Virus record (IMG/VR): IMGVR_UViG_3300045005_000110
Strand: one strand, 5' to 3'
DNA from: a virus
Length of the DNA stretch: 45,535 nucleotides
The notes beneath the pieces were generated by a model that was not told the origin of the DNA, made no database searches, and saw nothing but the letters and a program-made list of their open reading frames with translations. The position numbers were made by a program, and so were the translations under genes. Shown piece by piece: positions 42,983-44,130 of the stretch (positions are counted from its first letter, which is position 1; each line of letters opens with the position of its first letter).

Positions 42983-43020
42983 TGTGAAAATAATAGCCGC
43001 ACCTGGGGCGAGGGCCAAAT

Positions 43021-43458
43021 TCATTTCGACAAATTGCTTTTTACTGCGTCGGCGATTTGAAGGTAAGTTTCAAGCCCGTGATTCGAGATGGCAGTGTTTA
43101 ACGCATAAAGAATGTAGCGGACGTTTTCTCGCAAGTAGCCTTTGCTGTTGTCTATTCTGTCCAGGCTCGCCACGAAGGGTGCTGCATCGGAAAAAGGAAT
43201 CTTCGACAAAGCACAGCAATCATTTTGAATCCGAAGTAGGTTCTCCAGAAATTCAATGCTTAAATCGAAATCGAGATGCTTTTTCTCGGCGCGTTTTTTG
43301 GAGTGGACGTAACTGACGTAAGCCCTCTTGCTAGACAGCTTGTTTAGCCAAGCGACATTTTCTAGCCTTCGGCATTTCTTGCATCGTCTGCCATTGTGTT
43401 TCTTCCCGCGATAGAAGTGTTCGTCGCCTTTGTCTTCTTTGCATTTGGTGCAGATCAT
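43021..43458 (-). CDS. HNH homing endonuclease (HNH_3-like) in an AT-rich island
   Basis: N-terminal zinc ribbon 'ICTKCKEDKGDEHFY…CKKC'. The HNH-type motif 'SLDRIDNSKGYLRENVRYILYALN' is present. Local GC is visibly lower than in the flanks. Confidence 0.65.
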   Translation of the reverse strand: MICTKCKEDKGDEHFYRGKKHNGRRCKKCRRLENVAWLNKLSSKRAYVSYVHSKKRAEKKHLDFDLSIEFLENLLRIQNDCCALSKIPFSDAAPFVASLDRIDNSKGYLRENVRYILYALNTAISNHGLETYLQIADAVKSNLSK

Positions 43459-43739
43459 TTAACGCCCCCAGAGTTCAGATATTCTATCGTGAAAACCCTG
43501 GAGAATTGCGTTATGCTGGTCGGCGGGATTTTTTCGCGGCTCTTGTTTCCAAAAGGTTCGACCCTGACGCCGGGGGCCGAAAAACCTGGGCGGGATTTTT
43601 TTGTGACACGCTAATAAGAAAACAAGGCCGTAGAGGTATGGGGACCGCCCCCGAACGGGAACCATCGTCAGACTTTTTGCTTTTGAATTTCGACATTCAT
43701 TAAAATGTTACAGCGTCCTGTTCATAGCGTTGTACCTTT

Positions 43740-43775
43740 GTATCCACCACACACATAGTAGTGTGTGGTGGATAC
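43740..43775. repeat. Perfect 15-bp-arm palindrome
   Basis: gtatccaccacacac-atagta-gtgtgtggtggatac, with no U-tract. Confidence 0.5.
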
Positions 43776-43788
43776 TATCCAACTGTTG

Positions 43789-44130
43789 TCATTGCATCAG
43801 CAATGCTAACTGGCGCATGTATCGCTCGCTCTGTAGTACGACCTTGAGTGATAGTAGCTGCTGCTTGGTGAGTGGTCGGCCGCTGTCCTTCTGATCCCTG
43901 AGCGAGTGTAGGTAGCGTGTGTCGTGGTCCTCGATGCCGAAAGGACCGGGCAGTTCGGTAGCGAGATCCTCGGCGTTGCTGTCAGCCAGCACAAGCGTGT
44001 CGAACATGCGTTCCACTTCGTCTAGCTGCGAGGCTTTGAGCTTGGGCAGTCGCTGCGCTAGGTCGGCGGTTCGTGCGGCGAGGTGGGGAAGGTTGGTCTT
44101 CCCGTTCGCCTTAGCTTCGTTGATGTCCAT
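43789..44130 (-). CDS. Hypothetical protein (113 aa)
   Basis: Start MDINEAKAN with AAGGAG 6 nt upstream. The 5' region lies inside the 127-bp repeat. Confidence 0.55.
   Translation of the reverse strand: MDINEAKANGKTNLPHLAARTADLAQRLPKLKASQLDEVERMFDTLVLADSNAEDLATELPGPFGIEDHDTRYLHSLRDQKDSGRPLTKQQLLSLKVVLQSERYMRQLALLMQ

Follow-up and report, generated by a model that had tools for sequence, protein, structure and literature searches.

A PacI-like nuclease gene inserted beside native AT-rich intergenic DNA of a phage is a candidate free-standing homing cassette

Intronless homing is known for the seg and mob genes of phage T4. These T-even genes are small nuclease genes in intergenic positions between genes conserved in related phages, they are absent from close relatives, and the neighbouring promoter is left intact. 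Several of them appear without a promoter of their own (PMC2988022), and an intergenic site between conserved genes is a hallmark of free-standing homing endonuclease genes (PMC2988022, PMC10448857). ORF145, a gene in the viral record IMGVR_UViG_3300045005_000110 (the whole stretch analysed, 45,535 nucleotides, is called the window), resembles the T-even genes in these features, while the proteins themselves differ: Seg is of the GIY-YIG type and Mob is a canonical HNH enzyme with a C-terminal DNA-binding domain, whereas ORF145 is of the PacI-like type. A limited literature search found no enzyme of the PacI-like family that was shown to home, and PacI-like homing, if true, would be a new catalytic type among the known homing endonuclease families.

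The best match of ORF145, both by sequence profile and by fold in the PDB, is R.PacI (PDB 3ldy/3m7k; His-Me finger group 20, Jablonska et al. 2017). The two proteins are of similar length (142 aa and 145 aa), and they share an N-terminal CxxC...CxxC zinc ribbon and a beta-beta-alpha-metal core with the pattern DR.D...GY...N........N, with Tyr for the catalytic His. The metal ligands of PacI are an Asp and an Asn, and a Tyr stands in for the His base (PMC4081073, PMC5714182), and the PacI group is predominantly viral (PMC5714182). The structural alignment of R.PacI with ORF145 gave an identity of ~16% and a TM of 0.44, and R.PacI has a second Cys4 zinc site which is poorly kept in ORF145. The settings also differ: R.PacI, encoded on the chromosome of Pseudomonas alcaligenes, is a restriction enzyme with the site TTAATTAA, whereas ORF145 is a phage gene that some relatives have and others lack.

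A further relative is T4 Srd (gene srd, 248 aa), in which homology to residues 49-134 of ORF145 extends over the N-terminal ~85 residues. Its residues 14-98 aligned with the profile of the ORF145 family at an hhalign probability of 97.7%, the two proteins have the motif SL(D/E)R.D..GY...N........N in common, and both are encoded by non-essential phage genes in an early-type region. Srd differs from ORF145 in having no zinc ribbon, in carrying E for the metal-ligand D and in a C-terminal extension of ~150 aa, and the activity described for it is not cleavage of DNA but stimulation of the host's RNase E (PMC7430671). The same domain organisation as in ORF145 is found in proteins of cultured phages from phrog_3322 and phrog_1035 ('endonuclease', 'endonuclease VII'), such as gp38 of Ralstonia phage DU_RP_I and a protein of Pseudomonas phage PA11, at 28-37% identity over >90% of the length. 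In DU_RP_I the family member lies between terS and terL and is absent from the same-genus phage P-PSG-11, so that it is, like ORF145, an indel between conserved genes. These proteins differ from ORF145 in their hosts and genome contexts, and their records show no biochemical characterisation.

An initial annotation had described positions 43000-43790 of the window as an AT-rich island with a free-standing HNH homing endonuclease gene and ~330 bp of structured non-coding DNA, the whole being taken as a mobile insertion. The features of the region are listed below; L007, L008/L009 and L012 are related metagenomic phage lineages, and L011 is a further relative.

42858..42983, minus strand: ORF41, downstream flanking gene for a small hydrophobic protein, 95% identical in L007
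42990..43018, minus strand: sigma-70-like promoter TTGGCC-17-TATTAT, from a promoter scan of the window
43021..43458, minus strand: ORF145, 145 aa with an ATG start, gene of a predicted PacI-like (tyrosine-type) His-Me finger nuclease with an N-terminal zinc ribbon
43023..43513, minus strand: the whole insertion (leader and ORF145), 491 bp, as judged against the empty sites of related phages
43459..43513, minus strand: leader, 55 nt, found solely together with ORF145 and missing in L007, L008 and L012
43514..43592, minus strand: diverged native tract adjoining the insert, which contains the repeat copy 43522-43534
43580..43735, minus strand: conserved non-coding core, ~155 nt, single-copy in the sequences examined, which includes the repeat copy 43589-43601
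43740..43775, minus strand: perfect palindrome with 15-bp arms, a hairpin 13 nt past the stop codon of ORF113, from a repeat finder
43789..44130, minus strand: ORF113, upstream flanking gene, with 66% identity in L007, 50% in L008 and 57% in L011

The assignment of ORF145 to a nuclease family was examined by profile and structure comparison. Homologues of ORF145 fall into 6777 representative clusters at E<=1e-3, and PHROG endonuclease families matched it at 1e-23 to 1e-13, the 'endonuclease' family phrog_3322 at 1.2e-23. A profile built from 33 members of the family and run against the PDB with hmmsearch found PacI (3ldy_A, E=3.7e-7) in two collinear stretches that span the zinc ribbon and the beta-beta-alpha part. 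The AlphaFold2 model built with an alignment reached a pLDDT of 95.1 and was the only one used, the single-sequence model (pLDDT 40) being discarded. Its secondary structure (E97-101, E113-117, H118-127) is a beta-hairpin followed by a helix with the metal-binding Asn. In a Foldseek search of the PDB with this model, PacI came first (prob 1.00), followed by the HNH domains of Cas9, Gme, colicin E7/E9, Cap5 and ZRANB3. Among viral structures, phages and giant viruses contributed 126 matches at E<=1e-3. The free-standing HNH-superfamily nuclease gene of the initial annotation was thus upheld, also at the level of fold. These profile and model comparisons place ORF145 in the HNH/His-Me superfamily, in its PacI-like tyrosine branch, and the protein is a predicted nuclease.

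The more specific label 'HNH_3-type' (PF13392) had to be dropped. No Pfam HNH model matched ORF145 at E<=1, the first His is missing, and DRID stands where DH.D would be; over the 33 family members, Pfam HNH gave a single weak HNH_5 match (0.0051). The residues C82, S98, D100, R101, G107, Y108, N112 and N121 are invariant in these 33 members, and D100, R101, Y108, N112 and N121 align with the PacI pattern DR..GY..N...N. The motif reads S-L-D-R-I-D in ORF145, and no conserved His occurs anywhere in it among the 33. The zinc ribbon is formed by C3, C6, C26 and C29 (residues 3/6/26/29, CxxC...CxxC), and the protein also carries SLDRIDNSKGYLRENVRYILYALN. At the second Cys4 zinc site of PacI, C82 alone is conserved in ORF145, and the PacI residues FICN correspond to YALN. 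Pfam and NCBIfam hold no family for ORF145, PADLOC returned nothing for it or the neighbouring genes, and a word-index protein search with ORF145 gave the self-match alone.

The local GC drop was confirmed. The GC content of 43000-43790 is 0.469, while 790-nt windows average 0.571 (sd 0.029) over the whole stretch; a GC as low as this occurs in 0.7% of the 790-nt windows, all of them at window positions 1-~800. ORF145 itself has a GC of 0.452 and the insert 43023-43513 one of 0.45. The GC3 of ORF145 is 0.55 compared with 0.75±0.07 for 35 other genes (minimum 0.63), which is ~3 sd below the other genes of the genome. The composition of ORF145 is foreign.

Relatives without the gene supported the proposed insertion as well. 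As determined by global alignment and a view of the junctions, L007, L008/L009 and L012 lack 43023-43513 at an otherwise collinear site. Their nucleotide identity to the window is ~79% for L007 and ~74% for L008/L009, and all keep ORF172, ORF113 and the intergenic region and then pass straight to the promoter and the next gene. The carrier junction in the window reads ...CCGACCAGCA[TAACGC...AAATG]AATTTGGCC, and the empty junctions read ...GGCCGGGAAATTTGGCG in L007 and ...GCGGGAAAATTTGTCG in L008/L012. These alignments indicate that ORF145 is an insertion relative to its close relatives. Because the block is absent from relatives with the same flanks and deviates in composition, we regard ORF145 as a free-standing cassette; and because it is an add-on in one phage that is missing from the closest relatives, it looks like an ordinary selfish-gene-like insertion. 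It also gives a clean filled/empty pair for a PacI-like phage nuclease, a member of a very large and viral family.

A near-repeat was seen at the downstream junction, with AATTTGTCG in the last codons of ORF145 and AATTTGGCC just past it, which is too short to interpret. A blastn search of the region against a phage collection gave no match, and a search for related loci with the downstream flanking gene gave nothing among viral contigs.

The promoter 42990..43018 lies directly past the stop codon of ORF145 and ends 6 nt before the ATG of ORF41 (42983). Promoters were found at the same place in the relatives, TTGGCG-17-TATTAT in L007 and TTGTCG-17-TATTAT in L012, and the insertion left this element intact. 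The slots further downstream are variable: in L008/L012 a DUF6428 gene replaces ORF41, leaving a 4-codon remnant, and in L007 the gene after ORF41 differs from that of the window. The leader of ORF145 contains a TAGAAT at 43481-43486 and, 6 nt upstream of the ATG, a GGGGG run. A -35 element was looked for in the leader and not found, and the promoter scan called no site in it, leaving ORF145 without a detected promoter of its own, and the abundant early-region motif CGCAAWWYCGGAGAC was not found upstream of the gene.

The non-coding stretch 43459-43788 measures 330 bp, and only a small part of it travelled with the gene. The initial annotation had treated all of it as mobile; the 55 nt of the leader (43459-43513) came with ORF145, and ~275 of the ~330 bases (43514-43788) are conserved in relatives without ORF145. 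This part is native phage intergenic DNA and not insert. The 'island' thus consists of a foreign nuclease cassette, which is compact, and of an AT-rich regulatory region native to the phage. The repeats, the palindrome and the length of the non-coding stretch, which had been taken as signs of mobility, belong to the native region.

The two-copy direct repeat is exact, as had been reported: GGCGGGATTTTTT, 13 nt, stands at 43522-43534 and 43589-43601, with no further copy at <=1 mismatch within the window and with 0 of 100 shuffles containing at least two matches. Both copies are also present, imperfectly, in the empty-site genomes, which speaks against the repeats as an insertion signature, and AAAAAATCCCGCC is a native repeated motif of the intergenic region. 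A target-site duplication was considered for this repeat and rejected, as both copies lie on one side of the insert and both occur in the empty-site genomes.

The palindrome was likewise exact. Its arms (43740-43754 and 43761-43775) are 15 nt long, 100% complementary and separated by a 6-nt spacer, and it is unique in the window. Every relative has a hairpin of differing sequence directly past the stop of the upstream gene, with energies at the same position of -30.7 kcal/mol in the window, -22.2 in L007, -33.1 in L008 and -29.7 in L011; the stem sequences differ. The palindrome therefore does not stand as part of the element; it is a native hairpin, probably at the end of the ORF113 transcript, conserved in position and variable in sequence. 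No U-tract follows it, the coding strand continuing with AAAGGUACAACG, and the terminator scan did not call it as rho-independent on either strand. The description of the non-coding DNA as structured held for the palindrome alone: the stretch with the palindrome has a fold z-score of -3.8, and without it the z-scores are -0.69 (minus strand) and +0.40 (plus strand), no better than shuffled sequence.

The native DNA next to the insert showed a further anomaly. In 50-nt windows of the diverged tract, the identity between the window and L007 was 0.60-0.70, compared with 0.84-0.88 between L007 and L008, while outside the tract the window and L007 are at least as similar to each other as L007 and L008 are. 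The anomalous divergence covers the 75 nt next to the insert on its upstream side and is confined to the carrier genome, which would fit a co-converted or imported flank.

Taking these results together, we lean towards the view that ORF145 is a recently acquired, free-standing PacI-like nuclease cassette of the intronless-homing type. The cassette lies in a native intergenic region of a large metagenomic phage, with the conserved core on one side and the next gene's promoter on the other, and disrupts neither. Its protein would bind DNA via the Cys4 zinc ribbon and cut at a single-metal beta-beta-alpha site, with D100 and N121 as metal ligands and Y108 as base or nucleophile. In a co-infection, it would cut relatives without the gene at or near the empty site, and repair of the cut by recombination would carry the cassette, with part of the DNA around it, into that genome. 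For ORF145, the nuclease activity, the target site and homing are predictions, and the gene together with the empty sites of L007, L008 and L012 would form a defined donor/recipient pair. In favour of this reading, the closest homologue of ORF145, in the distantly related phage contig L006, also lies at a step from AT-poor to AT-rich DNA (GC of 0.437 vs 0.565).

Several observations weigh against homing. The neighbouring slots are variable (ORF41 or DUF6428, and another gene after ORF41 in L007), and cassettes are exchanged in this region also where no nuclease is present. The two experimentally characterised homologues, PacI (a restriction enzyme) and T4 Srd (an RNase E activator), are not homing enzymes. 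The second Cys4 zinc site is not conserved in ORF145, and the scan found no promoter belonging to ORF145 itself.

There is a smaller yet real chance that ORF145 serves the phage as an accessory nuclease, perhaps a PacI-like 'viral restrictase' directed against host or competitor DNA, and was acquired via the cassette shuffling usual in this hyperplastic region. PacI itself is a restriction enzyme, and viral members of the group have been proposed as viral restrictases (PMC5714182). The slots that differ between relatives do so with no nuclease involved, and the repeated regulatory cassettes of the region could mediate recombination. On the other hand, a methyltransferase or other protection gene was not found nearby, a tight insert of ORF and leader that spares the neighbouring signals fits selfish endonuclease genes better, and sporadic occurrence in two unrelated phage groups is more typical of such genes. 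The restrictase role and the selfish one can both hold for ORF145.

It is improbable that ORF145 was ancestral at the site and that the ancestors of L007 and L008/L012, one or several, lost it by deletion. The comparison of three lineages has no root, which leaves room for loss, and L006 carries the closest homologue of ORF145 (47-50% identity) among early genes, in a setting broadly like that of the window. Loss is opposed by the GC3 of ORF145, ~3 sd below the other genes and under the minimum of all 35, and by the diverged flank, which is found in the carrier genome alone; moreover, a deletion would need to take exactly the leader and the ORF, sparing the promoter. At the site, L006 has neither flanking synteny nor nucleotide similarity in common with the window. 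Aligning the region upstream of ORF145 with that of the L006 homologue gave a score of 22, compared with 18.7±2.4 and a maximum of 29 for shuffles, which is not significant. As the comparison covers 3-4 lineages and is unrooted, a gain is formally inseparable from one ancestral loss.

Still less probable is a Srd-like host-takeover factor whose nuclease function is lost or unused and which would bind, for example, a host RNase or a sigma-related partner. ORF145 matched the PHROG families 'Srd anti-sigma factor' (2.3e-13) and 'decoy of host sigma70' (9.2e-8), and the alignment of Srd 14-98 with the family profile and the stimulation of RNase E by Srd (PMC7430671) point the same way. However, the 'endonuclease' PHROG scores far better, and ORF145 retains the zinc ribbon and all the catalytic residues of PacI, whereas Srd lacks the ribbon, has E and not D at the metal ligand and carries the C-terminal extension.

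A group I intron or other self-splicing element with its own endonuclease, which the initial annotation had already set aside, can be dismissed, as nothing speaks for it beyond the length of the non-coding stretch and the fact that HNH genes are in general associated with introns, while Rfam models at E<=10 gave solely spurious microRNA and lncRNA matches, no excess folding energy is left without the palindrome, and ORF113 and ORF41 are separate genes, adjacent over the same intergenic region, in relatives without ORF145.

In a wider sense, we entertain the doubtful idea that the PacI-like family, with its thousands of viral genes, may include homing endonucleases, and that the conserved core could be an undescribed ncRNA or DNA signal, possibly the target. 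ORF68 is in frame with ORF145, and read-through from it into ORF145 was considered and rejected: its substitutions are even over the codon positions, it has frame-shifting indels, and it lies mostly in native sequence that is present without ORF145. Small ORFs of the core (MSKFKSKK... and MVPVRGRS...), which are open in four lineages, were also rejected as coding because substitutions are even over the codon positions (13/12/11 by codon phase in the core) and indels shift the frame. As an RNA structure the core fared no better, since the covariation term from RNAalifold was positive (unfavourable) on either strand, with one compensatory pair, and its folding z-scores are ~0. Rfam gave no match to the core, and exact-pattern scans for it returned nothing in viral and genome collections and one L008-like contig alone in metagenomes. 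The core is nevertheless a modest lead for a phage regulatory element: it is at least 90% conserved, with long invariant runs in four lineages whose neighbouring ORF113 proteins are only 50-66% identical.

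JGI and Logan metagenome contigs matched the window at 100% identity, and the longest contig carrying ORF145, the predicted PacI-like nuclease gene studied here, reached 125.8 kb. The gene content of the window looks like that of a large phage, with a tRNA nucleotidyltransferase-like protein, an AAA ATPase, an ADP-ribosylglycohydrolase and many small genes without a known family. It also included a 679-aa protein (7217-9256, plus strand) that matched the major vault protein shoulder domain (PF11978, 6.7e-21) and, weakly, a vault repeat; the shoulder domain seemed unexpected on a phage-like contig. 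All genes around ORF145 are on the minus strand, in the order ORF172, ORF113, non-coding stretch, ORF145, ORF41 and ORF146. The features of this region are as follows.

44230-44748, minus strand: ORF172, flanking gene
43789-44130, minus strand: ORF113, flanking gene
43740-43754 and 43761-43775: palindrome arms, starting 13 nt downstream of the ORF113 stop
about 43580 to 43735: conserved non-coding core, single-copy in the sequence examined
43589-43601 (in the core) and 43522-43534: repeated motif, AAAAAATCCCGCC on the coding strand
43458 to 43021, minus strand: ORF145, 145 aa, with N-terminal CxxC...CxxC and SLDRIDNSKGYLRENVRYILYALN near the C-terminus, both as initially annotated
42990-43018, minus strand: sigma-70-like promoter TTGGCC-17-TATTAT
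42858-42983, minus strand: ORF41, 41 aa, hydrophobic

Related phage contigs were reached through homologues of ORF113 and ORF172, the two flanking proteins.

L007: about 79% nucleotide identity to the window, empty site visible
L008/L009: about 74% nucleotide identity to the window, empty site visible
L011: about 72% nucleotide identity to the window, contig stops short of the site
L012: L008-like, from a DNA-pattern scan, empty site visible

In L007, L008 and L012, the same intergenic region lay after the ORF113 homologue and ran directly into the sequence that lies 3' of the ORF145 stop codon in the window. On the minus strand, the window junctions read ...AAAAAATCCCGCCGACCAGCA[TAACGC...ORF145...AAATG]AATTTGGCCCTCGCCCCAGGTGCGGCTATTATTTTCACATG, while L007 reads ...CAAAAATACGCCGGCCGGGAAATTTGGCGTTCCCCCAGGTGCCGACTATTATTTTGACATG and L008/L012 read ...GAAAAATACGCGGCGGGAAAATTTGTCGTTCCCCCAGGTGGCGACTATTATTTTCACATG. 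Comparison of these junctions therefore showed that the window carries an extra block of 491 bp (43023-43513), a 55-nt leader plus ORF145, and the initial proposal of an insertion was borne out by its absence from all three relatives. The GC content of the insert was 0.45, and the GC3 of ORF145 was 0.55, compared with 35 other window genes averaging 0.75±0.07, the lowest of them at 0.63. The insert ended one base short of the -35 element of the promoter ahead of ORF41, which is conserved in L007 and L012, and left the signals of the next gene undamaged. A gap of 6 nt separates the -10 element of this promoter-like site from the ORF41 ATG, and a Shine-Dalgarno sequence is lacking, which suggests a leaderless ORF41 mRNA. 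In the approximately 75 nt directly upstream of the insert, identity between the window and L007 was 0.60-0.70, versus 0.84-0.88 between L007 and L008, so this flank is unusual in the window only; it would fit DNA brought in along with the gene. Composition, intact promoter and diverged flank mark the insert as foreign or recently moved.

The low GC of 43000-43790 was real (0.469, against a mean of 0.571 and sd of 0.029 over all 790-nt segments), and the 0.7% of segments that were equally low all lay at the left end of the window. Native intergenic GC was also low in every relative (0.48-0.49, versus 0.54-0.60 for whole loci), and the "AT-rich island" therefore combines an AT-rich spacer that is native with an AT-rich gene that is foreign. 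The sole other AT-rich part of the window was the first 800 bases (GC 0.44) of a giant open frame (2-5650, minus strand), which is 1883 codons or more in length and runs off the left end. Within this frame, a 273-bp tandem repeat lies at 1-544 (2 copies, 87%) and a 252-bp repeat at 1436-2314 (3.5 copies); no convincing Pfam family was found for the frame.

ORF145 had been called HNH_3-type, but no Pfam HNH model, HNH_3 included, matched it at E<=1, and NCBIfam gave zero matches. Its best PHROGs family was phrog_3322 'endonuclease' (1.2e-23), with weaker matches to 'endonuclease VII', 'HNH endonuclease' and 'Srd anti-sigma factor'. A family alignment of 33 single-domain members, in which C82, S98, D100, R101, G107, Y108, N112 and N121 were invariant, was used to build a profile, and the restriction enzyme PacI was its sole meaningful match among solved structures (E=3.7e-7), collinear across both zinc ribbon and catalytic region. 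The AlphaFold2 model based on the alignment had a pLDDT of 95.1, and its best PDB fold match was once more PacI (prob 1.00), ahead of many canonical HNH domains with weak scores. The PacI metal ligands are Asp and Asn, and a tyrosine replaces the usual histidine base (PMC4081073; PMC5714182, 'group 20'); D100, N121 and Y108 of ORF145 align with these residues. Together, the missing Pfam HNH match and the PacI profile and fold matches place ORF145, a predicted nuclease, in the HNH superfamily as a member of the histidine-less PacI type and not of HNH_3. Its relatives occurred in 585 phage records, all at <=37% identity (tblastn), 6777 representative clusters matched the family at E<=1e-3 in an exhaustive HMMER search, and 126 structures of phage and giant-virus origin matched in a viral structure library (E<=1e-3). 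The family is thus very large. As a viral family it is already catalogued, and ORF145 is a new member of it. Elsewhere in the window, a 396-aa ORF (22284-23474, plus strand) with a weak PHROG 'HNH endonuclease' match (phrog_5200, 4e-5) and no Pfam match may be a second nuclease-like gene.

The initial annotation had also assigned about 330 bp of structured non-coding DNA to the insertion. Because 275 of these 330 bases (43514-43788) are present in genomes without ORF145, they are native. The 15-bp-arm palindrome, perfect and unique in the window, is likewise no part of the insert, as a strong hairpin lies at the same place in each relative (-30.7 kcal/mol in the window, -22.2 in L007, -33.1 in L008 and -29.7 in L011). 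Stem sequences differ while position and pairing are kept, which argues for function as a hairpin. No U-tract was found 3' of it, which sets it apart from a classical intrinsic terminator; it may serve to stabilise or process a 3' end, or to terminate transcription by a non-canonical polymerase. "Structured" was right for the palindrome, since the 342-nt minus-strand RNA including it had a folding z-score of -3.8, and wrong for the remaining 277 nt, whose z-scores were -0.69 (minus strand) and +0.40 (plus strand).

Across four phage lineages, the core was more conserved than the neighbouring proteins, with long invariant runs, whereas the ORF113 proteins were merely 50-66% identical. Coding DNA was ruled out by the even spread of substitutions over the three codon phases (13/12/11) and by frame-shifting indels, and the open small ORFs in the core had no third-position bias. 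RNAalifold found no covariation on either strand, and Rfam gave no match. The direct repeat GGCGGGATTTTTT was exact at 43522 and 43589, with no third copy in the window even allowing one mismatch, and 0/100 shuffles had two matches. The copy at 43589-43601 is conserved in all relatives, and that at 43522-43534 reads AAAAATACGCC in L007 and AAAAATACGCG in L008/L012. Since the two are found to one side of the insert and both predate it, they are neither a target-site duplication nor, as had been supposed, a mark of insertion.

The closest ORF145 homologue, P0002 (47-50% identity), was found on a contig, L006, that has just a few small genes in common with the phage group of the window, and its gene is AT-rich compared with its surroundings (GC 0.437 vs 0.565). 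Among cultured Ralstonia podoviruses, terS and terL of DU_RP_I (L014 2591-2959) and of several close relatives are separated by a PacI-like 'endonuclease' gene of this family; P-PSG-11 of the same genus (L016 785-882) lacks it, and its terminase genes are 98 bp apart. Free-standing homing endonuclease genes of T4-type and ICP1-type phages, recognised by intergenic insertion and sporadic distribution, are likewise inserted between conserved genes (PMC2988022, PMC10448857).

The best-supported reading, which we consider moderately probable, is that ORF145 would be a selfish, free-standing putative nuclease gene spreading by intronless homing. An accessory nuclease gained through cassette shuffling is a less likely alternative, as shuffling is clearly active here and the slots around ORF145 are generally variable between relatives. 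ORF41 is 95% conserved in L007, where an unrelated gene takes the place of ORF146, while in L008 and L012 (compared at L008 2634-3142 and L012 1066-1090) a 148-aa DUF6428 gene replaces ORF41, with a 4-codon ORF41 remnant (ATGAACTCCATCTGA) kept behind the same promoter. Loss of an ancestral gene in the relatives is improbable given the composition of ORF145 and the diverged flank. Slighter still is the chance of a non-nucleolytic factor like T4 Srd, which activates host RNase E (PMC7430671): Srd residues 14-98 fall within the ORF145 family (hhalign probability 97.7%), but Srd lacks the zinc ribbon, has E at the metal-binding D position and carries a long C-terminal extension. A group I intron, already rejected initially, was excluded by the Rfam search and the empty-site relatives. 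Insertions of free-standing nuclease genes are a well-known feature of phages. What is mildly new is the clean filled-site/empty-site pair for a PacI-type enzyme, as a limited, non-exhaustive literature search found no homing member of this family, and the unexplained conserved core.

Two repeated elements were observed near this locus. A 127-bp perfect direct repeat (44103-44229 and 45237-45363) heads ORF113 and a short ORF starting at 45264 (minus strand), respectively. Each copy contains, on the minus strand, a hairpin (AAGCCCGGATCGGCGACCCATCGCCCTTCCGGGCTT), then CTTTCGTTTC, an AAGGAG ribosome-binding site and the first codons, MDINEAKA. The break in one assembled contig, L003, falls exactly at 44229. 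The repeat resembles a duplicated regulatory cassette and could promote recombination. To the right of the window (L001 556-8633), coding-strand copies of CGCAAWWYCGGAGAC, at least 12 in number, occupy gaps between small genes, and in most cases a hairpin (AACCCTACAC...GTGTAGGGTT) comes next. L001 had 15 matches versus 4.0±1.9 expected; the window itself showed no enrichment, and the last copy, a degenerate one, lies at 44853-44867 (minus strand). This element looks like a phage-specific promoter/stem-loop cassette of an early-gene array.
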